A stretch of 64,000 nt of DNA. Origin: an uncultured Clostridia bacterium (GTDB taxonomy: Bacteria > Bacillota > Clostridia > Oscillospirales > Ruminococcaceae). Location of the stretch: assembly GCA_937891895.1 (NCBI GenBank), contig CALATN010000218.1, positions 7,081-71,080 of the forward strand. The letters are read 5' to 3'. Below are positions 2,638-14,440 of the stretch, one piece after another. Numbering within the stretch: position 1 is the first letter of the stretch; the number at the start of each line of letters is the position of its first letter. The notes beneath the pieces were generated by a model. The model saw only the letters and a list, made by a program, of their open reading frames with translations. It did no database searches and was not told where the DNA came from. A program made the position numbers and the translations under genes.

Positions 2638-2666
2638 TTGACAAGTATTAGGCAAATTGATATAAT
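2638..2666 (+). promoter_or_regulatory. sigma-A type promoter of the ABC-like locus (TTGACA-17-TATAAT)
   Basis: Perfect consensus hexamers with a 17-nt spacer, in an AT-rich spacer. It lies about 215 nt upstream of the first gene. Confidence 0.65.
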
Positions 2667-2882
2667 AATTATACAACTCTATATATTTTTATTAGTGGAT
2701 AACATAATTTTTGTGTAATTATCACTAAACTTACACATTGAACTTGTATGGTTTGCACTGTTTTTGTGCTGTTTAAACTACCAATACCCACATATTGGTA
2801 ATGCAAAACTGCGCCTCAGTGCCTTTTTTGCGTGTGCAAATTATCGGTTTTGAGTTAGGTTATATGAAAGGTGGTCTATCTG

Positions 2883-5798
2883 TTGTCAAGGAAAACGAAT
2901 TTTAAAAGGACTCTGTCTGCGGCACTTGCAGTTCTCCTTTGTGTTTCTGTAATTCCTGCTTTCCCTGCGTTTGCGGAAAGTGAGCCTGTCAAGACTACTG
3001 CTGAAGCGCAGTACACTGAGGCTGCTCTTGCTTTCGAAAAGCAGAAAACTTACAGCGAATACTTTGATGAAATTGTAAATGTCAAGCGCCCGAATGCTGA
3101 GGCAATGCTCACTTACTCAGGTAAGAGCGACAATGCCGAAGCCGAAGTGACAACCTTCGAGGGCAAGGATAATGTTTTGGTATGGTCAAACGAAGAAGGC
3201 CGTATCGATTATACTGTTGAGGTTCCGCAAACAGGTGCATATCAGCTGGAGGTAAGCTATTACCCGCTTGAGGATGGCGCAAGCACTACTGAGCTTTCCG
3301 TTCTTCTCGACGGTGTTTCTCCGTATGATACTGCTACCCGTGCTACTCTCCCGCATATCTGGACAAGTGAATACCCTATTTCTACTGACTCTAAGGATAA
3401 CGAAGTCCGTCCTCCTCAGGTACAGGCGGCAAGATGGGTTAAAACTATGGTTTACGATGTGGACGGTCTGTTCAATGACCCTCTCTACTTCGTTCTCGAG
3501 GAAGGTACCCATACTATTTCCTTTGAGTCTGAACGTGCGTCTGTTGCTATTGAGTATATCAAGCTTTGCAATACTGACGGTGCAAAGACTTATACAAAGC
3601 CTTCCGATGCTGAGCTTGCAAAGAACAGCGGTGCTGAGCCAATCAGACTTCAGGGCGAACAGTATGCTTATACAAACTCTCAGACTTTGTTCCCTACATA
3701 CGACAGAGGTTCTTACCTTACTGAACCTTCCCATCCGTCCAAACAGCGCTACAATACAGTAGGTGACGGTACTTGGGATACTGCAGGTCAGGCAATTACC
3801 TGGGAAATGGATGTTGCCGTTGCAGGTTATTACAAAATTGGTATCAAGGCTCGTCAGAACGAGCTCCGTGGTCTTTATACAAACCGCCGTCTGCTTATTG
3901 ACGGTGAAGTGCCGAATGAAGCGTTTGAACAGCTGAAATTTATGTATGATGATGACTGGATTATGGTTGTTCCTGAAGATGCAAACGGTGAGGCCGCTTA
4001 CGTTTATCTTGACAAGGGCAAGCACGAGCTTTCTCTTGAGGTAATCCCTGGCGAAATTGGCGAATCTATGAGAAGACTGGATGAAATCGTGTACACGGCA
4101 AACCAGTACTATATGCAGATTCTTATGATTACCGGCCCTACACCTGACAAGTATACTGACTACTATATTCATAAGGAAATTCCTGAAATTCAGGACGTTT
4201 TCACTGAGCTTGCTGCTCAGCTTATTGAAGAAAAGGATAATATTGAAGGCCTTGCAGGTCAGAAGGGTACAGAAGCTGCTGCTCTGGAAAGACTTGCTAC
4301 TGTTCTTGAAAAGGCAGCTGATAAGCCTACAAAAATTCCTGATATGATTTCCAACAACTCCATCAAGGATAACGTTAACTCCGTTTCTTCCTGGATGCGT
4401 CAGTACCGTGAACAGCCTCTTGAAATTGACTTTATTGAGCTTGTTCCTGCTGATGGTGAGTTTACTTCTGTAAAATCAAATATCTTCAAGAGCTTCGGCT
4501 TCGGCTGTAAGGGCTTTGTCAACTCTTTCTTTGAAGACTATACACAGCTTTCCGATATCGAAGGCGACTCTATCAATGTATGGGTTTCTTCAGGCCGTGA
4601 CCAGGCTAATGTTATCAAGCAGATGGTTGACTCTGACTATAACCCTGACGCTGATGTAAAGGTAGCTGTAAACCTTGTACAGGGTGCTATTATGGAAGCT
4701 GTTCTTGCCGGAAAGGGCCCTGACGTTGCTCTGTTTGTCGGAGGTGAATTCCCTGTAAACCTTGCTCTTCGTGACCTTGTTGTTCCTATGAACGATATGG
4801 AAGGCTTTGACGAGGTTATGGGCAGATTCCAGAGAAATGCTGCTGTTCAGTATACTTACGACGGCGATGTTTATGCTGTTCCTATCACACAGAGCTTCCC
4901 TATGATGTTCTATCGTAAGGATATGCTTGCTCAGGTTGGTATCAGCGAGCCTCCTGAAACATGGGAAGAACTCATCGATATGCTTCCTGCTATTCAGAGA
5001 AAGTATATGCAGCCGGGTCTTATTCTCCCGGGCGTTGTAAACGGCGTTTCCGTTTCTCCTGCAACTGAAGCAGGTCACACATTTGCTCTGCTTATGCTCC
5101 AGTCAGGTACCAACTATTACAATGAGGATCAGACTGCTACAAACTTCGATTCACAGGCTGCTGTTGATGCGTTTGCTACATGGACAGACTTCTATAATGT
5201 ATATAAGTTTGACCAGACTTACGACGCATTTACACGTTTCAGAACAGGTGAATCTCCTATTGTTATCCAGAACTACTGTACTTTCTACAATCAGCTGAAT
5301 GTTGCCGCTCCTGAAATCAAGGGTCTGTGGGACTTCTGTGCTGTACCTGGTACAGAAAGAGCTGACGGTACTATTTCCCACGCTTCCAACTCCAATGGTG
5401 CGGGTGCTATCATCCTCTCCAGCTGTGATGACCAGGAAGCTGCATGGGAGTTCATCAAGTGGTTTACCGAAAAGGAAACAATGGTTGAATATGCACAGAA
5501 CGTTGAAGGCGTAATGGGTCCTCTCGGTCGTGTTGACGTTGCAAATACTGAGGCGCTTCAGGAGCTTAACTGGTCCAACAGAGATCTTGAAAAGATTATG
5601 TATCAGATGGATCAGCTCGAGGAAATTCCTATCGTTCCTTCCGCATATGTTGTAACACGAAGCATTATGAACGCATTCAGAGCTGTTGTTAACGACAAGG
5701 AAAATGCGAGAGAAACACTCCGTTGGTACAACATTGATATCAACCGCGAAATCACAAGAAAACGAGAAAATCTCGGACTTGATGAAAAAGAAGAATAA
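2883..5798 (+). CDS. extracellular solute-binding protein (CUT1-type ABC) fused to a ~520-aa N-terminal extension with two beta-sandwich/CBM-like repeats
   Basis: The ORF is open from GTG 2871. TTG 2883 has better RBS spacing (AAAGGTGG). Signal peptide ...LSAALAVLLCVSVIPAFPAFA. The C-terminal ~440 aa has family-1 SBP character (INVWVSSGRDQANVIKQMV...GKGPDVALF...WEELIDMLP). Confidence 0.8.
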   Translation: MSRKTNFKRTLSAALAVLLCVSVIPAFPAFAESEPVKTTAEAQYTEAALAFEKQKTYSEYFDEIVNVKRPNAEAMLTYSGKSDNAEAEVTTFEGKDNVLVWSNEEGRIDYTVEVPQTGAYQLEVSYYPLEDGASTTELSVLLDGVSPYDTATRATLPHIWTSEYPISTDSKDNEVRPPQVQAARWVKTMVYDVDGLFNDPLYFVLEEGTHTISFESERASVAIEYIKLCNTDGAKTYTKPSDAELAKNSGAEPIRLQGEQYAYTNSQTLFPTYDRGSYLTEPSHPSKQRYNTVGDGTWDTAGQAITWEMDVAVAGYYKIGIKARQNELRGLYTNRRLLIDGEVPNEAFEQLKFMYDDDWIMVVPEDANGEAAYVYLDKGKHELSLEVIPGEIGESMRRLDEIVYTANQYYMQILMITGPTPDKYTDYYIHKEIPEIQDVFTELAAQLIEEKDNIEGLAGQKGTEAAALERLATVLEKAADKPTKIPDMISNNSIKDNVNSVSSWMRQYREQPLEIDFIELVPADGEFTSVKSNIFKSFGFGCKGFVNSFFEDYTQLSDIEGDSINVWVSSGRDQANVIKQMVDSDYNPDADVKVAVNLVQGAIMEAVLAGKGPDVALFVGGEFPVNLALRDLVVPMNDMEGFDEVMGRFQRNAAVQYTYDGDVYAVPITQSFPMMFYRKDMLAQVGISEPPETWEELIDMLPAIQRKYMQPGLILPGVVNGVSVSPATEAGHTFALLMLQSGTNYYNEDQTATNFDSQAAVDAFATWTDFYNVYKFDQTYDAFTRFRTGESPIVIQNYCTFYNQLNVAAPEIKGLWDFCAVPGTERADGTISHASNSNGAGAIILSSCDDQEAAWEFIKWFTEKETMVEYAQNVEGVMGPLGRVDVANTEALQELNWSNRDLEKIMYQMDQLEEIPIVPSAYVVTRSIMNAFRAVVNDKENARETLRWYNIDINREITRKRENLGLDEKEE

Positions 5799-5818
5799 CT
5801 TGATTGGAGGGGAAACCT

Positions 5819-6784
5819 TTGGCTGCTGAAACTCAGAAGAAGGAAATCTTGCTGCCTAATGAGCGAAAGATGTCCTTTAAAGAAAGATGGGCTTATACCT
5901 GGCACGAAATGAAGAGAAACAAGATGTGTTATCTTATGCTGGCACCTTTTATGGTTTTCTTCATCGTGTTCACTGTAATTCCCGTTTGTATGTCACTGCC
6001 TATCGGCTTCACTGATTTCGATATGGCACACTTCCCGCCGAAGTTTGTCGGCTTCCAGAACTTCTATACAATGTTCCTCGAAGACGACGTATTCATCGGC
6101 GCTATCAGAACAACACTTATCTTTGCTATCTTTACAGGTCCGCTCAGCTATGTGCTCAGCTTCTTCCTTGCTTGGCTCATCAACGAGCTTCATCCTGTAC
6201 TCAAGACAGTATTTACACTTATTTTCTACGCACCATCAATGGCAGGTAACATCTACTTCGTATGGCAGCTCATCTTCTCGGGCGATACATACGGTTACCT
6301 CAATGCTGCACTTACTTCTCTCGGTATCACAACAGCTGCTGTTCAGTGGCTTACTGACGCGAACTATGTGCTTGTCTGCGTAATCATCGTTCAGCTGTGG
6401 GTATCTATGGGTGCAGGCTTCCTTGCTATGCGTGCAGGCTTCCAGGGTATCGACAAGGCGATGTATGAAGCAGGTGCTATCGAAGGTATCAGCAACAGAT
6501 GGCAGGAGCTTATCTTCATTACAATCCCTTCAATGGGTCCTCAGCTCATGTTTGCTGCTGTAATGCAGATCGTATCCGCATTTACTGTTGATATCGTAGG
6601 ACGTAGCCTCGCAGGCTTCCCGTCCACAGACTATAAGGTTCATACCATTATGACTCACGCTTTCGACTACGGTTGGATCCGTTACGAAATGGGTTATTCT
6701 TCCGCAATATGCTTTGTCCTGTTCCTTGTAATGCTGATTTGTAACAATCTCATAGGCAAGCTTCTGGGCAAGTACATGAACTAA
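5819..6784 (+). CDS. carbohydrate ABC transporter permease (MalF/BPD_transp_1 type), pair 1
   Basis: Multi-TM protein with EAA loop EAGAIEGISNRWQELIFITIPSMGP. The ORF is open from TTG 5804. TTG 5819 sits 6-8 nt after GGAGGGG, and ATG 5870 is also possible. Confidence 0.8.
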   Translation: MAAETQKKEILLPNERKMSFKERWAYTWHEMKRNKMCYLMLAPFMVFFIVFTVIPVCMSLPIGFTDFDMAHFPPKFVGFQNFYTMFLEDDVFIGAIRTTLIFAIFTGPLSYVLSFFLAWLINELHPVLKTVFTLIFYAPSMAGNIYFVWQLIFSGDTYGYLNAALTSLGITTAAVQWLTDANYVLVCVIIVQLWVSMGAGFLAMRAGFQGIDKAMYEAGAIEGISNRWQELIFITIPSMGPQLMFAAVMQIVSAFTVDIVGRSLAGFPSTDYKVHTIMTHAFDYGWIRYEMGYSSAICFVLFLVMLICNNLIGKLLGKYMN

Positions 6785-6806: not shown

Positions 6807-7778
6807 ATGGCTAAAAAAGAACTGAAGCCTTCTCAGATTGCGGCTCAGATTGAGGCTGAAAATGCCGCTGCGCTTGAGGCTCTGAGAAAAAGGCGTGAAA
6901 AAGAGCATGCTAAGATGGAAAAGTCCAAGGGTACCAACAAGCAGGTTGGTAAGAGCTGGAAAAACGATATCGGTATTTTCCTCTTCCTTACATTCCTCGG
7001 TGCGTTCATGCTTCTCCCTATCTACATCGCAATCGTTACATCTATCAAGCCGGTAAATGAAATCTTCATTATGCCGCCTCGTCTTTATGCGATGGACCCT
7101 ACTTTTGACAACTTCAAGGACCTTTTCGTTGTTGCAAACAACTCATGGGTTCCTTTCTCAAGAAACGTATTCAACAGTATCTTCGTTACTGTTGCAGCAA
7201 CAGTTCTTCACGTTCTGTTTGCTTGTACAGCAGGCTTCGTACTTGCTAAGTGCAGATTCCCTGGCGCAAAGGCAATCAACAAGGTTGTTGTAATTGCCCT
7301 CCTTTTCAGCAGCCAGGTAACCTACATCATGCAGTACATCGTTATGGCTAAGCTGGGTATGATCAATACATACTCCGCGCTCATTCTTCCTCTTATCGCT
7401 TCCTCTATGGGTCTTTACCTTATGATTCAGAGCGTTAGTACAATCCCTGACGCTATGATTGAAGCGTCAAAGGTTGACGGCGCAGGTCTTATGCGTATAT
7501 GCTGGGGTATCGTAATGCCGAACTCCAAGCCTGCGGTTATGACAATTATCATCTTCCAGTTCCAGGCGGCTTGGAACTCCAACGGCGGTTCACTCGTATA
7601 TGATGAAGCGCTCAAGACAATTCCTACTGTTGTTCAGCAGATTGCTGCAGCAGGTATTGCACGTCAGGGTGCGATTGCGGCTTCCGCGGTTGTACTTATG
7701 ATTCCGCCGCTTGCTATCTTCATTGCTGCCCAGAGTAACGTTATGGAAACTATGGCGCACGCCGGAATGAAAGACTAA
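6807..7778 (+). CDS. carbohydrate ABC transporter permease (MalG type), pair 1, with charged ~55-aa N-terminal extension
   Basis: RBS GAGGTGAGG. EAA loop EASKVDGAGLMRICWGIVMPNSKP. Six hydrophobic segments. Confidence 0.85.
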   Translation: MAKKELKPSQIAAQIEAENAAALEALRKRREKEHAKMEKSKGTNKQVGKSWKNDIGIFLFLTFLGAFMLLPIYIAIVTSIKPVNEIFIMPPRLYAMDPTFDNFKDLFVVANNSWVPFSRNVFNSIFVTVAATVLHVLFACTAGFVLAKCRFPGAKAINKVVVIALLFSSQVTYIMQYIVMAKLGMINTYSALILPLIASSMGLYLMIQSVSTIPDAMIEASKVDGAGLMRICWGIVMPNSKPAVMTIIIFQFQAAWNSNGGSLVYDEALKTIPTVVQQIAAAGIARQGAIAASAVVLMIPPLAIFIAAQSNVMETMAHAGMKD

Positions 7779-7871: not shown

Positions 7872-9377
7872 ATGTCAGGCTTGAAAAAGCTTATTTCGCT
7901 TATTTCAGCGGCGGCAATCAGTATTTCCGTGCTTGCGGTAAATACCTCCGCGCTGGAAACATATGACCCTTACAGCTATGACAGATGGGGTGACGCCGTT
8001 TCTTCACAGGCAGGCTACACCGCTGAAAAATACGTGGACGGAAATACGATCGGCTGCGGCTCTCTGAATGAGCCTGCTGACCTGTACATTTCCCACGACA
8101 ACCTTATGTACATAGCAGATAAGGGCAACAACAGAATCGTGGTTACTGACCTCGATTTCAACTTCAAGAAAGAGATGAAGGAATTCTCCTACAAGGATGA
8201 AAAGCTTACTCTTGCAAAGCCAACAGGCGTTTATGTTGACCAGTACACAGGCTACATCTATATCTGTGATACAGAAAATGACCGTGTTATCAAGTGCGAT
8301 ACAGACGGTAAGGTTGACAGACTTTTTGAAAAGCCAACGGATGCACTTTATGACCAGGCTCTTACTTATAATCCGAGCAAGGTTCTTGTCGACAAGGCAG
8401 GCAACGTTTATGTTGTTGTTAAGTCACAGACAAAGGGTGCTGTAATGTTCAACTCTCAGGGTGATTTCCTTGGCTTCTACGGTGCAAACCGAGTTGAACA
8501 GACTGCTGAGGTTCTCGCAAACGCTTTCTGGAAGATTTTCTCCACAGAGAAACAGAGAGACCGTATGACAAAACAGACTCCTATCGGCTTCTCAAACTTT
8601 GATATTGACGATGATGGCTTCATCTATACAGTTACAGATTCTCAGGAAACTACAACTGACCTTGTTAAGAAGCTCAATCCAAGAGGTAACAATATTATCG
8701 ACTCTCTCGGTGTTGCTGATATGCAGTTCGGTGATAATCCTCCTGCTTACTATTCAATCTATTCCAAGAATTCCAGCCTTACCGACATTGACCTCGGTCC
8801 TAACGGCGAGCTGAATATTCTTGACTTCCAGCATGGCCGTATTTTCCAGTACGACAAGGAATGCTGGCTGCTGTTCATTGTCGGCGGCAAGGGCAATCAG
8901 CTTGGTCTGTTTGAGTCCGCTACCGCAATTGAAAGCTACGACAATCACCTTTATGTTGTTGACTCCATCAAGGACAACATCACAATCTTTACAAGAACAG
9001 TTTTCGGTGAAATTGTTACCGACGCTGCTAACCTTTACAATGACGGTCTTTACGAGGAATCTCTTGAGCCGTGGCAGAATGTTCTGAAGTATGACGGTAA
9101 CTACCGCCGTGCTTACATCGGTATCGGTAACGCACTCTACAACAAGTATGAGTACGAGGAAGCTATGGAATACTTTGAAATTTCCATCAGCCGTGACCGA
9201 TACAACAAGGCATTTGAGGGCTACAGAGATATCTGGCTCAAGGAAAACTATATGAAGTGCCTCATTGTTATTGCTGTACTTGTAATTCTTGGTTTCGTCT
9301 ATAAGCATTTCCGCAAGAAGGGCAAGATTGTTTACCCTTGGGAAAATCGCCGCAGAGGCAGAAGGGGTGGTGTGTAA
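7872..9377 (+). CDS. secreted NHL-repeat beta-propeller protein with TPR-like segment and C-terminal membrane anchor
   Basis: Signal peptide LISLISAAAISISVLAVNTSA. NHL-like repeats (MYIADKGNNRIVVTD, IYICDTENDRVIKCD, LYVVDSIKDNITIF). TPR-like YIGIGNALYNKYEYEEAMEYFE. C-terminal TM CLIVIAVLVILGFVY followed by an R/K tail. Confidence 0.7.
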   Translation: MSGLKKLISLISAAAISISVLAVNTSALETYDPYSYDRWGDAVSSQAGYTAEKYVDGNTIGCGSLNEPADLYISHDNLMYIADKGNNRIVVTDLDFNFKKEMKEFSYKDEKLTLAKPTGVYVDQYTGYIYICDTENDRVIKCDTDGKVDRLFEKPTDALYDQALTYNPSKVLVDKAGNVYVVVKSQTKGAVMFNSQGDFLGFYGANRVEQTAEVLANAFWKIFSTEKQRDRMTKQTPIGFSNFDIDDDGFIYTVTDSQETTTDLVKKLNPRGNNIIDSLGVADMQFGDNPPAYYSIYSKNSSLTDIDLGPNGELNILDFQHGRIFQYDKECWLLFIVGGKGNQLGLFESATAIESYDNHLYVVDSIKDNITIFTRTVFGEIVTDAANLYNDGLYEESLEPWQNVLKYDGNYRRAYIGIGNALYNKYEYEEAMEYFEISISRDRYNKAFEGYRDIWLKENYMKCLIVIAVLVILGFVYKHFRKKGKIVYPWENRRRGRRGGV

Positions 9378-9378
9378 T

Positions 9379-10008
9379 ATGCTGGATTTGACAAGAGGAC
9401 AGTTCGTTAAACACGTAATTACTCACCCTTTTGAGGGCTTTGAGGATCTCCGCTGGAAAAAAGCGGGCTCTATGGGAATTGCATTCTTCGTAGTATGCCT
9501 CCTTTTTGTTCAGCAGGTTGCTTACAGCAGACTTTACGGTTTCCAGTATTACTCTGATTATGATAAGATTTTTAATATTGTACCTTACATTTTCAAGAGT
9601 TTTATTCTCTTTGGTACATGGGTAGTTGCTAACTGGGCAATGTGTACTCTCTTTGACGGAGAGGGCACAATGAAGAATATCTTCATCAACTCAGCTTATG
9701 CGCTTATCCCTTACATTTCAGGTTATCTTATCGGTACAGTAATGTCCCATTTCCTTATTCAGGACGAATACGTATTTATCCAGGCTATCGAAATCATCGG
9801 TACTTGCTGGAGCTTCGTTCTTCTTATTTCGGGAATAAAGGCTGTACACCAGTTCACATTCGGAAAGACAATAGCGCTGATGCTGCTGACTATTGTGGCA
9901 ATGATTGCTATTCTGTTCCTGCTCGTACTTCTTCTTACACTGTTCCAGCAGGTACTTATCTTTATTCTTTCCATCTACACAGAACTGTCTTACAGGTTCA
10001 GAGTTTAA
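9379..10008 (+). CDS. Yip1-domain-like multi-pass membrane protein
   Basis: ATG 9379 lies 1 nt after the upstream stop. About five hydrophobic helices follow a short cytoplasmic N-terminus (MLDLTRGQFVKHVITHPFEGFEDLRWKK). The family assignment is from memory of similar loci. Confidence 0.6.
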   Translation: MLDLTRGQFVKHVITHPFEGFEDLRWKKAGSMGIAFFVVCLLFVQQVAYSRLYGFQYYSDYDKIFNIVPYIFKSFILFGTWVVANWAMCTLFDGEGTMKNIFINSAYALIPYISGYLIGTVMSHFLIQDEYVFIQAIEIIGTCWSFVLLISGIKAVHQFTFGKTIALMLLTIVAMIAILFLLVLLLTLFQQVLIFILSIYTELSYRFRV

Positions 10009-10040
10009 AATACTAAAAACGAAAAGTGGTGAAATAACGA

Positions 10041-12338
10041 ATGCAGAAAAGGTTTAAAAAGCTGATTGCCTGCCTTTGCTGTCTGGCTATGATGGTTCCG
10101 CTGTGCGCTTTCCCTGCAACTGCTGAGGACGCACCTGCAACTGAAGAAGCTGCTGCTTCCGAGGAAGCTGCTGAATCAGGGGAAACATATGCTATGGACC
10201 CTGAGGAACCTCTGATTACAGATGAACAGGCATTGGCTGAAATGGAGCTTGCTACTGAAAACAGTAAAATGGCTCTGTACTACAATAAAAAGGGTCAGAT
10301 TGCTCTTGTTGATAAGGCAACAGGAGAAGTATGGTGGTCTAACCCTATAAATGTTGACGCTGCGGCAGGTAAGGCTGCTCAGAAGACAAAGCTGAAGTCC
10401 TCTATGTCTATGACTTTCGCTCAGCCTTCAAAGAGAAGCACTACTGCACAGAACAGCTCAGACCAGAAGGTTAAGTGCAAAATCAAGGTAAAGAAGAATT
10501 CTGACGGACTCGACATTACCTATGATTACGGCAACGCAGAAATTTCCGTTCCTGTAAAGGTTACTCTCAAGGACGACTACCTCAGCGTAAGCGTTGACAC
10601 AGCAGGAATTGTTGAAAGCAACAGCGATAAGATTGTAACAAACCTTATTATGATGGGTGCTTTCGGTGCTGCTGAGCCTGATGAAACAGGCTATTTCGTT
10701 ATTCCTGACGGAAGCGGCGCACTTATCAACTTCAACAACAATAAGATGAACTACAAGACTTACAAGGGTCAGGTTTACGGCAGAAATGTTACAGTTGTTG
10801 AAACAACAAAGCCTGCTGTAACTCAGAACGTTTATCTTCCTATGTACGGCATCGTTAAGGGCAACAGCGGTATGATGGTTGTTGCTGACAAGGGCGATAC
10901 TTGTGCAACAATCAATGCGTACACAAGAGGTCAGGAAAAGACCAGTTACAACGCTTGTTATTTTGATTTCGAAATCAGAACAGATGACGAATACCTTATG
11001 GGCGGCGACGCTAACCCGCTTGCCGTTTATGAAAAGAGAGGCATTCTTGTTCCTGAAATCGAGGTAAGATACTACCCTGTATCCAATTCCGACAAGTCTG
11101 AAGTTGACTATGTTGATATCGCAGATACATACAGAGATTACCTTACAAAGGAACAGGGCGTTACAAAGTCCGCAGCTGCTGACAAGTCTGCTCTCTATGT
11201 TGACTTTTACGGTGCTGTTATGAAGCAGGAAACTGTTCTCGGTCTTCCTGTTATGATGCAGCACGAAACAACCTCCTTCGAGGAAGCAAAGACAATCCTT
11301 GAAAAGCTCAAGGAGCTTGGTGTTGATGATATCGTTGCAAACTATAATCAGTGGACAACTGACGACATCAAGGAAAAGGTTGCAGATGACGCTAAGCCTG
11401 CTTCAAAGCTTGGCGGCAAGAAGGATTTCAAGGCGCTCAAGGCTTATGCTGAAGAAAACGGTATTGCTCTTTATCCTGCTGTTGATAACCTTACATTCGA
11501 GTCAGGCAACGGTTATTTCACAATGACCGATACAGCAATCAGAGTTTCCAATGCTTACTCCAGACAGATTGAATACGACCTCAACCACGGTGTTGAAAAC
11601 AAGTTCTATGACGCAATTTCCCTTCTCAGCCCAAGAAAGTATGAGAAGATGTTCAAGAGCCTTACCAAGAGCTACTCCAAGGCAGGTATTGACAATATTT
11701 CTCTGGGCAGTGCCACAACCGTTATCTACGGCGACTATGGCAAGAAGTCCGTTTCAAGAGAAATGTTCAAGTACAACCTCCAGAGCTACCTCGAAGAAAT
11801 GAAGGGTTCAATCGGTTCAATTCTTGCAGACGGAGCAAATGCTTACGTTCTCAAGTATGTTGACCACGTTTCGAATATTCCTCTCAACTCCAGCAAGTTT
11901 GATATTTTTGATCAGGAAATTCCTTTCTATCAGATTGTTATGAGCGGTGTAAAGCCTGTTTCCACAACTGCTGTAAACGGCGACGCTCAGGTTGCTGAGC
12001 TTGTTCTCCGTGCAATTGCATCAGGAACAAACCTCAGATTTGACCTTCTTGCTGAAACTGCTGACGAGTTGAAGGATACACGTTACGACAAGTATTACTA
12101 CGCTAACTATGAGTACTGGGTTGAAGATGCTGCTGCTTGCTACAAGTTTGCTGATGAAATTCTTTCCAAGACCGCGGGCTCAACAATTACCGAATACAAT
12201 GTTCTTTCCGAAACAAAGATTGAAACAGTTTACGAAAACGGCACAAAGACAATTGTTGACCTTGAAGCAAGAACTGTTGATGTAAACGGTAAAAAGGTAA
12301 GCATTTATGACTACATCGGAAAGGAGGTAATCGGCTGA
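10041..12338 (+). CDS. large secreted protein, DUF5696-like (possible glycoside-hydrolase-like fold)
   Basis: Signal peptide KLIACLCCLAMMVPLCAFPATA followed by an acidic linker. 765 aa with no catalytic motif I can name. The family assignment is from recollection of co-occurrence with Yip1 and ABC genes. Confidence 0.6.
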   Translation: MQKRFKKLIACLCCLAMMVPLCAFPATAEDAPATEEAAASEEAAESGETYAMDPEEPLITDEQALAEMELATENSKMALYYNKKGQIALVDKATGEVWWSNPINVDAAAGKAAQKTKLKSSMSMTFAQPSKRSTTAQNSSDQKVKCKIKVKKNSDGLDITYDYGNAEISVPVKVTLKDDYLSVSVDTAGIVESNSDKIVTNLIMMGAFGAAEPDETGYFVIPDGSGALINFNNNKMNYKTYKGQVYGRNVTVVETTKPAVTQNVYLPMYGIVKGNSGMMVVADKGDTCATINAYTRGQEKTSYNACYFDFEIRTDDEYLMGGDANPLAVYEKRGILVPEIEVRYYPVSNSDKSEVDYVDIADTYRDYLTKEQGVTKSAAADKSALYVDFYGAVMKQETVLGLPVMMQHETTSFEEAKTILEKLKELGVDDIVANYNQWTTDDIKEKVADDAKPASKLGGKKDFKALKAYAEENGIALYPAVDNLTFESGNGYFTMTDTAIRVSNAYSRQIEYDLNHGVENKFYDAISLLSPRKYEKMFKSLTKSYSKAGIDNISLGSATTVIYGDYGKKSVSREMFKYNLQSYLEEMKGSIGSILADGANAYVLKYVDHVSNIPLNSSKFDIFDQEIPFYQIVMSGVKPVSTTAVNGDAQVAELVLRAIASGTNLRFDLLAETADELKDTRYDKYYYANYEYWVEDAAACYKFADEILSKTAGSTITEYNVLSETKIETVYENGTKTIVDLEARTVDVNGKKVSIYDYIGKEVIG

Positions 12339-13273
12339 TGACAAGTCTTCGCAATATGTCCTATGAAAAGAAAAAGGGTCTTTATGGCTACGGCTTTATC
12401 GCACTCTGGTTTATCGGTGCACTGATGTTCTTCATCATCCCGCTGTTTGAGTCGTTTTACTACTCCTTTCATGAAGTAACACCTGAAACAGGTTATATGA
12501 ATATCAAGCCGCTGGTTGAAAGATTCGGCGGTGAGGAAAAGACAAACATTTTCCTTAACTATAAGAACGCTTTTATGACTGACCCTAACTACCGTCAGTA
12601 CCTTATTGAGGTTCTCGGTGATATGGCGCTCAATCTCCCGATTATCGTAATCTTCTCGCTTTTTGTAGCGATTATCATCAATCAGAAGTTCAAGGGAAGA
12701 ACTTTTGCAAGAGCTGTATTCTTCCTCCCTGTAATCATTGCAACAGGTCCTGTTTATGCAATCATCACAGGCGACCTTGACACAGGAGGAAACAGCGATG
12801 CTGCTCAGTTCTCCACAATGTTTGAGGCCGATATGGTTGACCAGCTGCTGGAATTTATAGGTGTATACGGTTTTGGTACGAAATTCACAGAGCTGCTTAC
12901 AACAATTACTTCCGACATCCTTAACCTTGTTTGGAAGTGTGGTATTCAGATTCTTATCTTCCTTTCCGCACTCCAGGGCATTCCTTCCTCTGCTAAGGAA
13001 GCTGCCGCTATCGAGGGTGCAACATCATGGGAATTCTTCTGGAAGATTACTCTTCCTTACATTTCCCCTATGATTCTCGTTAACATCGTTTATACAGTTG
13101 TTGACACATTTACTGATCCGACCAACCAGGTAATGGAACGTCTGCTCAGTGTACAGAGCGAATGGAAATACGGTTATTCCGCTGCTATGGCGTGGAGCTA
13201 CTTCGGTATTGTACTTGTAGTTCTGGGTATTATCTTCGCAGTTATGAACAAGCTCGTCTGGTACGACGATTAA
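12338..13273 (+). CDS. carbohydrate ABC transporter permease (MalF type), pair 2
   Basis: The ATG overlaps the upstream TGA (CTGATGA). EAA loop EAAAIEGATSWEFFWKITLPYISP. Confidence 0.85.
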   Translation: MTSLRNMSYEKKKGLYGYGFIALWFIGALMFFIIPLFESFYYSFHEVTPETGYMNIKPLVERFGGEEKTNIFLNYKNAFMTDPNYRQYLIEVLGDMALNLPIIVIFSLFVAIIINQKFKGRTFARAVFFLPVIIATGPVYAIITGDLDTGGNSDAAQFSTMFEADMVDQLLEFIGVYGFGTKFTELLTTITSDILNLVWKCGIQILIFLSALQGIPSSAKEAAAIEGATSWEFFWKITLPYISPMILVNIVYTVVDTFTDPTNQVMERLLSVQSEWKYGYSAAMAWSYFGIVLVVLGIIFAVMNKLVWYDD

Positions 13274-13288
13274 GGAGGGGAGAAATTT

Positions 13289-14368
13289 ATGGCATCTACA
13301 ATGGCAAAGGGTTTCTCTCCCTTCAAGAAAAAAGAGAAGGAGCCTACTCTCAGCGATGTTAAGCTGACACGTAGAGAAAAAAGAGAGCGTTTCAAGAAAA
13401 GACTTGAATGCCTCACTCCTGAGGAACAGAGATATCTGAAGCGTAAGCAGTTTATGGATGCGGTATGGCCTGTGTTCAGAGCAGTAATCGTATTTGGTCT
13501 TTGCTTCATCATTCTTTATCCTCTTATCTTCATGGTTTCCACAGCAATCCGTACAAGAGCGGATATGAATGACCCTACAGTAATGTGGATTCCAAAGCAT
13601 GTTACGTTTACAAACATTACTGACGTTGTAAAGGCGATTAACTTCTGGGATATTCTCGGCAACACCCTTGTTCTTAACATTGGCTGTTCCATAATTCAGG
13701 TTATTACCTGTGCAATCACAGGCTACGGCTTTGCACGTTACGAATTCAAGGGCAAGAAGCTTCTGTTCTTCATTGTAATTTTGATGATTCTTGTTCCGCC
13801 GCAGATTATTCTTATTCCTCAGTATAAGTTCTTCCGTTACTTCAATCCACTGGGTATCTGGAAGCTTATCACAGGAAGCACAATCAGCCTTATCGATACA
13901 CCGCTTACAATGTATCTCCCTGCGTTGACTGCAAATGGTCTGCGTGCAGGTCTGTTCATATTCCTGTTCAGACAGTCCTTCAAGGGCTTACCTAAGGAGC
14001 TTGAGGACGCAGCTGCACTTGACGGCTGTACACCTCTTGAAACCTTCATTAAGGTAATGATTCCTAACGCAGGCTCTACATTCCTTACAGTATTCCTGTT
14101 CTCAATTGTTTGGTACTGGAATGACTATTACGTATCAACATCGTTCTTTGTTAACAACAAGACGATTGCGCTGGAGCTCAAGAACCTGGATACAAACCTC
14201 AAGGTTCTCCTCTTCGGTGATGCTAATGCACAGGTTAACATCCGTGAGCTTATCGTATGGATGGAATCCGCTTGTCTGATTTCCATTCTGCCGATACTCG
14301 TGCTGTATGTTTGCTTGCAGAAGCACTTCACAGAAGGTATCGCACGTTCCGGTCTTACAGGTATGTAA
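13289..14368 (+). CDS. carbohydrate ABC transporter permease (MalG type), pair 2, with basic ~60-aa N-terminal extension
   Basis: RBS AAGGAGGGG. EAA loop DAAALDGCTPLETFIKVMIPNAGS. N-terminus is KKKEKEPTLSDVKLTRREKRERFKKRLE. Confidence 0.85.
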   Translation: MASTMAKGFSPFKKKEKEPTLSDVKLTRREKRERFKKRLECLTPEEQRYLKRKQFMDAVWPVFRAVIVFGLCFIILYPLIFMVSTAIRTRADMNDPTVMWIPKHVTFTNITDVVKAINFWDILGNTLVLNIGCSIIQVITCAITGYGFARYEFKGKKLLFFIVILMILVPPQIILIPQYKFFRYFNPLGIWKLITGSTISLIDTPLTMYLPALTANGLRAGLFIFLFRQSFKGLPKELEDAAALDGCTPLETFIKVMIPNAGSTFLTVFLFSIVWYWNDYYVSTSFFVNNKTIALELKNLDTNLKVLLFGDANAQVNIRELIVWMESACLISILPILVLYVCLQKHFTEGIARSGLTGM

Positions 14369-14404: not shown

Positions 14405-14440
14405 AAGAATCAGAAAGCTTATGCTTTCTGATTCTTTTTT
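14405..14440 (+). terminator. intrinsic terminator 2 (tandem)
   Basis: 14-bp stem AAGAATCAGAAAGC / GCTTTCTGATTCTT followed by TTTTT. Confidence 0.85.

Follow-up and report, generated by a model that had tools for sequence, protein, structure and literature searches.

ATP-binding cassette (ABC) sugar importers are textbook three-part machines composed of a binding protein, a permease pair and an ATPase. In Caldicellulosiruptor bescii, the operon xloEFG-X-GH129-axoFGE-xynF... (Athe_0174-0185) carries an 'NHL repeat-containing protein' (X) and a 'putative GH129' between two predicted xylan-oligosaccharide transporters, the flanking genes being predicted transporters of xylan and arabinoxylan oligosaccharides (PMC8579813). 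This operon is under the control of XynR and AraR, xylan and Avicel induce all of it, and a strain deleted for the shared ATPase MsmK no longer grows on oligo- or polysaccharides (PMC8579813). Binding of XynR to the locus has been measured (PMC12285236), and in C. saccharolyticus the corresponding copy is responsive to biomass rich in xylan (PMC5658599). Here we analysed a related cassette in a 64,000-nucleotide stretch of an uncultured Clostridia bacterium of the family Ruminococcaceae (contig CALATN010000218.1), hereafter called the window. The window cassette departs from the three-part scheme in that three extra envelope proteins, an NHL-TPR protein, a Yip1-domain protein and a DUF5696 protein (together referred to as the trio), are locked between two CUT1-type permease pairs.

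The initial annotation of the window knew of no function assigned to these three proteins. We likewise found no functional study of X or 'GH129' themselves, and a literature search on Yip1, NHL and ABC transporter combined returned nothing relevant; the statement stands for function but not for annotation, given the two names already attached to the C. bescii copy (PMC8579813). What is known is the CUT1 importer. The conserved trio, functionally unstudied, and the second permease pair go beyond it, and the window adds a split NHL/Yip1 protein, a single binding protein and the lack of a linked glycosidase. We propose that the trio probably makes up the invariable accessory core of a twin glycan importer, of the CUT1 type of ABC transporters and encoded in one operon.

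The trio and its conservation across Bacillota

The three open reading frames lie between the two permease pairs exactly where they had first been placed, on the plus strand like all operon features described below. They encode a secreted NHL propeller of 501 residues with TPR-like helices and a C-terminal membrane helix (7872..9377), a polytopic Yip1-domain membrane protein of 209 residues counted from its ATG (9379..10008) and a DUF5696 protein of 765 residues (10041..12338). The three family assignments, originally made from the sequence alone, were all confirmed by profile hidden Markov models (HMMs) above the curated Pfam cut-offs: NHL (PF01436) scored 42.6 bits (cut-off 20), Yip1 (PF04893) 63.3 bits (cut-off 28.6; profile positions 1-172 of 173) and DUF5696 (PF18952) 540.9 bits (cut-off 25.6; profile positions 3-612 of 612).

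The Yip1 start follows the NHL stop after a gap of 1 nucleotide (TAAtATG), as had been noted. The DUF5696 stop and the permease 2A start do overlap, but in the form TGATG, with the common A at 12338, and not in the ATGA arrangement reported before. A strong ribosome-binding site (AAAGGAGG) is located 10 nucleotides upstream of the permease 2A start. The tight spacing and this site fit the translational coupling suggested in the initial annotation, whereas the fixed stoichiometry claimed along with it goes further than spacing can carry.

In line with the expectation that the trio belongs to ABC permeases, it was accompanied by them without exception at the related loci tested. The eight-gene order (giant binding protein, permeases 1A and 1B, NHL, Yip1, DUF5696, permeases 2A and 2B) was found again in 21 species-level relatives, as far as their contigs extended, with DUF5696 identity declining from 88% to 39%. 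The same arrangement was present in twelve complete cassettes from other families of this taxonomic order, five of them from one six-copy genome; three further order-level cassettes were cut by contig ends, one of them being the sixth copy of that genome. A full-length homologue of the binding protein was present in every cassette.

We extended the survey to the phylum with an even sample of 401 Bacillota genomes from 278 genera. DUF5696 was carried by 32 of these genomes (~8%), representing 19 genera, and in all 29 loci fetched from this sample Yip1, or an NHL-TPR-Yip1 fusion, preceded DUF5696 while 2A and 2B followed it. The family is large, forming 4,274 clusters at 50% identity in a large protein library. 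One phylum-level locus, from Caldicellulosiruptor owensensis (CP002216.1), encodes a DUF5696 protein that is 31% identical to that of the window over 688 residues, and all seven of its genes match full-length, with HMM scores of 1209 for the binding protein, 336-465 for the permeases, 589 for NHL and 639 for DUF5696. The trio is the invariant centre of the cassette, a real conserved accessory module across Bacillota.

Sequence divergence within the cassette is uneven. Mean pairwise identity among 14 diverse cassettes was highest for the permeases of pair 1 (49% and 46%), followed by pair 2 (37%), the binding protein (34%), NHL and Yip1 (31%) and DUF5696 (25%). The genes next to the cassette vary from locus to locus and include GH16, GH31 with GH106, GH127-like and GH43/GH10 enzymes (GH, glycoside hydrolase family), or, as in the window, none that is sugar-related. 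Because these neighbours differ between loci, the cassette can be described as a substrate-independent chassis.

One genome of the same order (G026, 1.8 Mb) contains six cassettes (L025-L030), whose DUF5696 proteins are ~24-29% identical to that of the window; the six copies look as if they arose by paralogous expansion, much as polysaccharide utilisation loci do. One of them, L030, is the only cassette that we saw with a rearranged order: pair 2 is located upstream of the binding protein, and NHL, Yip1 and DUF5696 remain behind pair 1.

Structures of the NHL-TPR, Yip1 and DUF5696 proteins

A single open reading frame of 700-780 residues with NHL, TPR and Yip1 segments (Pfam on three such frames) is present in many lineages, with fused and split versions interspersed across the phylum. 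Because NHL and Yip1 are fused in so many lineages, the window NHL-TPR and Yip1 proteins are, as judged by sequence comparison, the two halves of a protein that is one chain elsewhere, Yip1 being the C-terminal half.

The NHL protein has hydrophobic segments at residues 7-25 and 454-472, which agree with the signal peptide and the C-terminal transmembrane anchor first assigned to it. Its structural model (predicted local distance difference test, pLDDT, 82.9) contains propeller strands at 34-375, four TPR-like helices at 377-437 and a continuous helix at 441-482, which holds the membrane segment and is followed by a basic cytoplasmic tail. The TPR-like segment, for which Pfam gave sub-threshold TPR matches, was corroborated by the match of residues 388-445 to consensus TPR proteins in the Protein Data Bank (PDB; E 3e-23). 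Such a membrane helix is what topology would require to return the chain to the inside and allow the Yip1 domain to begin at the cytoplasm.

Residues 62-226 match NHL propellers in the PDB, including the sensor domain of PknD, with E down to 1e-14. A Foldseek search with the model returned the NHL domains of TRIM71, Thin, TRIM2 and Brat (TM-score 0.72-0.79 by target), and both model and search agree with a six-bladed NHL beta-propeller. The modelled propeller resembles ligand-binding NHL domains more closely than it does any enzyme. Some close relatives carry an insertion of ~85 residues in the first NHL blades, near window residue 113 (L002 and L004-L007; proteins P0161-P0166), and their NHL proteins have 585-586 residues as opposed to 499-501; a similar, larger insert is found in L020-L022.

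The eukaryotic founders of the Yip1 family act in Rab-dependent vesicle traffic, a pathway that is missing from bacteria. The only functional precedent for a bacterial Yip1 protein found in the literature was YknW which, according to PMC4887032 citing Yamada 2012, modulates the assembly of the Bacillus YknXYZ ABC transporter. The YknWXYZ precedent strengthens the scaffolding role considered for Yip1 in the initial annotation.

We next turn to DUF5696. Its AlphaFold model (pLDDT 93.7; predicted template modelling score 0.91) consists of a signal peptide and an acidic linker followed by a beta-sandwich (69-347), a TIM barrel (~385-708) and a second beta-sandwich (716-754); two DUF5696 proteins looked up in the ESM Atlas had no model there. 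Foldseek ranked DagB first (5opq, E 6e-31) and NagBb second (E 2e-25), followed by GH101. VIA-align gave Z scores of 28.0 (5wzq) and 27.7 (5opq), with overall values of 27-28 across 565-575 residues, as compared with ~18 for GH101 and ~16 for GH13 and GH36. A profile built from 110 DUF5696 sequences also matched ZgGH129/DagB (5opq, 8rzg) and NagBb (5wzn) with E values of 5e-8 to 1e-5. As modelled, DUF5696 has the three-domain fold of GH129 with a central (beta/alpha)8 barrel.

It had been suggested at the outset that both the NHL propeller and the large secreted DUF protein could be polysaccharide-processing enzymes. The comparison of predicted structures linked DUF5696 to the glycosidases DagB and NagBb, and the propeller's closer likeness to ligand-binding NHL domains than to enzymes speaks against the idea for the NHL protein. 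For DUF5696 the suggestion was right about the glycoside-hydrolase fold, but the GH129 nucleophile Asp is missing and enzyme status is unsupported, for the following reasons.

NagBb uses D435 as nucleophile and E478 as acid/base, and the nucleophile of DagB is D486 (residue numbering as in PMC5698469). We mapped the catalytic positions by sequence-profile alignment via four GH129-family proteins from Bacillota genomes. Single GH129-like sequences from Bacillota failed to reach 5wzn, whereas the four-sequence profile succeeded and aligned D435 and E478 of NagBb to D513 and E557 of the GH129-like proteins. In the alignment of DUF5696 with this profile (hhalign probability 96%), D565 pairs with D523 at high confidence, and the nucleophile equivalent D513 is positioned 10 residues ahead of that pair. 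At the nucleophile position, 554, the window protein has a serine (S554, within ISLGS) and the family has Ser in 56, Ala in 24 and Gly in 14 sequences, together 94 of 110. No acidic residue occurs at 552-564 of the window protein. By this alignment DUF5696 appears to lack the Asp that serves as GH129 nucleophile at the end of barrel strand 4.

The acid/base residue maps to position 597, which is Asp in the window protein; across the 110 sequences it is Asp in 27, Glu in 20 and another residue in 63, and hence acidic in 47. A catalytically intact DUF5696 subfamily was not found among them, acids near strand 4 and at 597 occurring together in only 14 scattered sequences. We also considered D565 itself as nucleophile, from its spacing to a VPxY motif common to both families, and rejected it: its partner in the profile alignment, D523, corresponds to E444 of NagBb and not to the nucleophile.

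The family conserves an acidic set of its own, E192 (87%), D223 (99%), D565 (88%) and D624 (91%), along with N232, N233, N304, R313, N600, N646 and many Tyr and Trp residues. The conserved barrel residues lie just past the C-terminal ends of the strands, the usual place of a TIM-barrel active site, and we therefore conclude that a functional pocket was kept and GH129 chemistry was not. DagB uses an Asp from its N-terminal domain and shares with NagBb only the nucleophile (PMC5698469). Because of this N-terminal-domain Asp, a relocated catalytic set is conceivable in DUF5696 too. The literature contained no biochemical data for any DUF5696 protein; a full-text search for DUF5696 returned no paper, and none was found for 8RZG. 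Our tentative choice for DUF5696 is a non-catalytic glycan receptor or presenter, and a glycosidase with relocated catalytic residues is a possibility that we take seriously.

Weak DUF5696 matches in two relatives were discarded, being GH13 amylase and branching enzymes and not family members. In these (L070:1637-3529, L071:1587-3758), DUF5696 profile positions 265-351 weakly match the first barrel strands of GH13 alpha-amylase/branching enzymes, a similarity that would fit a common origin of the DUF5696 and GH13 barrels.

The operon and the possible roles of the trio

One promoter and one terminator bracket the eight genes as a single operon. A sigma-70 consensus promoter, TTGACA-17-TATAAT with TG (12/12 match), lies ahead of it at 2638..2666, and a terminator-like intrinsic hairpin, a 14-pair stem followed by a T run, ends it at 14405..14436. 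The first gene encodes a giant secreted solute-binding protein of 975 residues (2871..5798; SBP_bac_8 101 bits, SBP_bac_1 86 bits, weak CBM35), in which ~550 residues of N-terminal modules precede the SBP_bac_1/8 domain; a PDB sequence search with the N-terminal 541 residues gave no match. Permease 1A (5804..6784) is CUT1-type and UgpA/MalF-like (UgpA 62.8 bits), the longest frame starting from a TTG and the true start being uncertain. Permease 1B (6807..7778), also CUT1, is UgpE/MalG-like, with its EAA loop at residue 219. Behind the trio follow the CUT1 permeases 2A (12338..13273; family profile matches) and 2B (13289..14368; EAA loop at residue 240). The two pairs are mutually only ~20% identical, and the EAA-type loop, which docks the ATPase, is kept in all four permeases. 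Long, highly charged cytoplasmic N-terminal tails are present in 1A (~43 residues), 1B (58 residues) and 2B (64 residues), encoded at 5804-5930, 6807-6980 and 13289-13480, and are missing from the Caldicellulosiruptor homologues.

Both pairs have the two MalF/MalG-type permeases of a CUT1 importer, and the operon has only one binding protein. Pair 2 has none of its own in the window: the terminator comes directly after 2B and is followed by thyA-folA. The operon contains no ATPase gene, and no glycosidase, regulator or catabolic gene is linked to the window cassette. A UgpC/MalK-type ATPase of 402 residues (MsmK/UgpC-type; UgpC subfamily 497 bits, cut-off 432) is encoded on contig C58 of the same genome, and we infer that it serves the eight-gene operon. 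The host genome, an assembly of Oscillospiraceae of the ruminant-gut type (~95% complete), has one DUF5696 gene and one Yip1 gene.

In this genus, the secretion signals of the binding protein and DUF5696 are of the signal peptidase I type and lead into acidic linkers (2871-2990 and 10041-10210). Distant homologues of the two proteins are lipoproteins or N-terminally anchored. We rejected a lipoprotein reading for this genus, Cys11 being too near the N-terminus and the other Cys residues lacking a lipobox. RNA-library contigs from bovine gut and digester, 90-95% identical to the window, cover all eight genes in a patchy manner and span the 1B-NHL, NHL-Yip1, Yip1-DUF5696 and DUF5696-2A junctions; they are a weak sign of cassette expression, DNA carry-over being possible. 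Upstream of the operon, positions 840-2387 encode a 515-residue surface protein with a sortase signal and no Pfam domain, which forms a separate transcription unit closed by its own terminators at 2467-2528. The gene stays ahead of the cassette in most relatives within the genus (31-52% identity), and its product could be a functionally linked adhesin.

To relate the components to each other, we carried out an exploratory partial-Mantel analysis of 20 non-redundant cassettes, using pairwise distances with the mean of the other components regressed out and label permutation (28 tests). The known heterodimers co-varied, with r = 0.58 for 1A-1B and 0.31 for 2A-2B. The binding protein co-varied with pair 1 (0.31, 0.43), Yip1 (0.33) and DUF5696 (0.37), and Yip1 with pair 1 (0.28, 0.31) but not with pair 2 (~0). 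Conversely, the NHL ectodomain co-varied with 2A (0.37), DUF5696 (0.22) and 2B (0.21), and DUF5696 with 2A and 2B (0.27, 0.22), neither of them with pair 1. The components fall into two groups, the binding protein, 1A, 1B and Yip1 on one side and NHL, DUF5696, 2A and 2B on the other, a pattern that common substrate pressure could yield as well. As a lead, this grouping points to the binding protein as a partner of pair 1 and to possible contacts of the NHL-Yip1 protein with both halves.

We propose that the NHL-TPR and Yip1 proteins would form one membrane scaffold, with the extracellular propeller on a helical stalk and the Yip1 helices within the membrane, and that this scaffold would organise the two translocators as YknW does for YknXYZ. 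By this analogy, a scaffold for both translocators seems a reasonably likely role for the two proteins. The giant binding protein would feed mainly pair 1, and DUF5696 would handle surface sugar beside permease pair 2.

Several points weigh against this proposal. In the literature, the two transporters of the cassette are regarded as independent of each other (PMC8579813). The taxa used for co-variation are related and the statistics ignore kinship, and the positive control fails: NHL and Yip1, which are fused elsewhere, gave r = -0.07. The conserved DUF5696 pocket is shared across cassettes that lie beside GH16, GH31, GH43/GH10, GH106 and GH127 genes, which is odd for a substrate-specific receptor. 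The binding protein and DUF5696 of this genus have no lipobox or obvious membrane anchor after the signal peptide. A complex prediction for Yip1 with permeases 1A and 1B scored 0.00 and counts neither way, and the co-variation results pointed to no better choice of partners.

The best-surviving alternative, which we nevertheless consider unlikely, is that the locus encodes two independent importers for two related oligosaccharide classes, as in XloEFG and AxoFGE, and that the trio is a separate extracellular processing unit in which DUF5696 is an active glycosidase with non-canonical residues, trimming before uptake. The annotation of C. bescii (PMC8579813), the GH129 fold of DUF5696, the conserved acids D223, D565 and D624 at the barrel mouth and the binding proteins that pair 2 has of its own in Caldicellulosiruptor all agree with this explanation, and DagB provides a precedent, taking a catalytic residue from its N-terminal domain and having one catalytic residue in common with NagBb (PMC5698469). 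However, that common residue is the nucleophile Asp which DUF5696 lacks. Two independent importers would also have to account for a gene order that is unbroken across the phylum loci (29/29 fetched) and for a pair 2 without its own binding protein in the window, and if the unit were purely enzymatic there would be no evident task for the NHL-Yip1 membrane protein.

Carried further, our proposal of an accessory core would unite all eight proteins in a single supercomplex, the Gram-positive equivalent of the surface 'utilisome' of Bacteroidetes. In this supercomplex, NHL-TPR-Yip1 would bridge the two translocators and a GH129-fold pseudo-enzyme would gate pair 2. The Yip1 helices would pack on pair 1, the propeller would contact pair 2 and DUF5696, and the pseudo-enzyme would act as glycan receptor or gate for the pair that lacks a binding protein of its own. 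We regard such an assembly as quite doubtful.

Far less probable is that DUF5696 is an ordinary retaining alpha-glycosidase and a true GH129 member in CAZy, as the 'putative GH129' annotation in C. bescii (PMC8579813) and the best structural matches, NagBb and ZgGH129, might suggest: identity to these two enzymes is only 11-16%, the nucleophile position is Ser, Ala or Gly in 94 of 110 (no acid at 552-564 in the window protein), and the acid/base position is acidic in only 47 of 110. The idea that the cassette exports or assembles surface polysaccharide, prompted by the lack of a linked glycosidase, regulator or catabolic gene in this genome and by the sortase-type surface protein gene upstream, is hardly credible: the combination of a solute-binding protein with EAA-loop permeases of CUT1 (MalFG/UgpAE) type is the defining mark of an importer, and homologous cassettes adjoin glycosidases and are induced by xylan.

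Among the bacteria that carry the cassette are fibre degraders of the rumen and gut as well as C. bescii, a model organism for biofuels. Should the trio scaffold or feed the importers, it would be a missing part of complex-glycan capture through the thick Gram-positive wall, with relevance to the engineering of biomass-degrading strains. Its role is directly testable because the C. bescii copy is induced by xylan and gene-deletion tools are available for this organism.

Comparison with known systems

The Caldicellulosiruptor cassette (Athe_0174-0181; Csac_2419-2412) has the same gene order as the window and components that are homologous over their full length, as tested on the C. owensensis copy, and it too has no ATPase in the operon, being served by a shared MsmK. 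There are differences as well. NHL-TPR-Yip1 is one fused protein in Caldicellulosiruptor and split in the window. One or more dedicated binding proteins and xylanases come after pair 2 in Caldicellulosiruptor, whereas the window has one binding protein and none of these additions. Regulation by XynR/AraR and induction by xylan are known for Caldicellulosiruptor, and the window has no linked regulator. In C. owensensis, two tandem binding proteins of ~596 residues follow pair 2 (L077:14307-17992), while C. bescii is annotated with one (axoE).

The GH129 enzymes NagBb (5wzn, an alpha-N-acetylgalactosaminidase) and ZgGH129/DagB (5opq, 8rzk, a 3,6-anhydro-D-galactosidase) share the three-domain architecture of DUF5696. 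At 11-16% identity, the nucleophile Asp of the enzymes is replaced by Ser, Ala or Gly in DUF5696 and the acid/base position is unconserved. DUF5696 has its own acidic set (E192, D223, D565 and D624) and is always found inside an ABC importer operon.

Like the window protein, YknW is a membrane protein with a Yip1 domain whose gene accompanies those of a bacterial ABC transporter. YknYZ belongs to the MacB-type exporters and has a membrane-fusion protein as partner, whereas the partners in the window are CUT1 importer permeases, and only the idea of a Yip1 accessory protein transfers. YknW has no NHL/TPR ectodomain partner, and we liken it to the window Yip1 by role and not by sequence-level orthology.

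The extracellular six-bladed NHL propeller tethered to the membrane has a counterpart in the Mycobacterium tuberculosis kinase PknD (PDB 1rwi; sequence E 6e-11). In PknD the propeller is tethered to a kinase, whereas in the window it is tethered to a Yip1 domain and supplemented with TPR helices.

Finally, CUT1 importers that rely on an orphan ATPase (MsmK in Streptococcus pneumoniae, MsmX in Bacillus subtilis and MsmK in C. bescii) have the same combination of a binding protein and a MalF/MalG-type permease pair with EAA loops. Compared with these importers, the window cassette has two permease pairs, one binding protein of 975 residues and three extra envelope proteins between the pairs.

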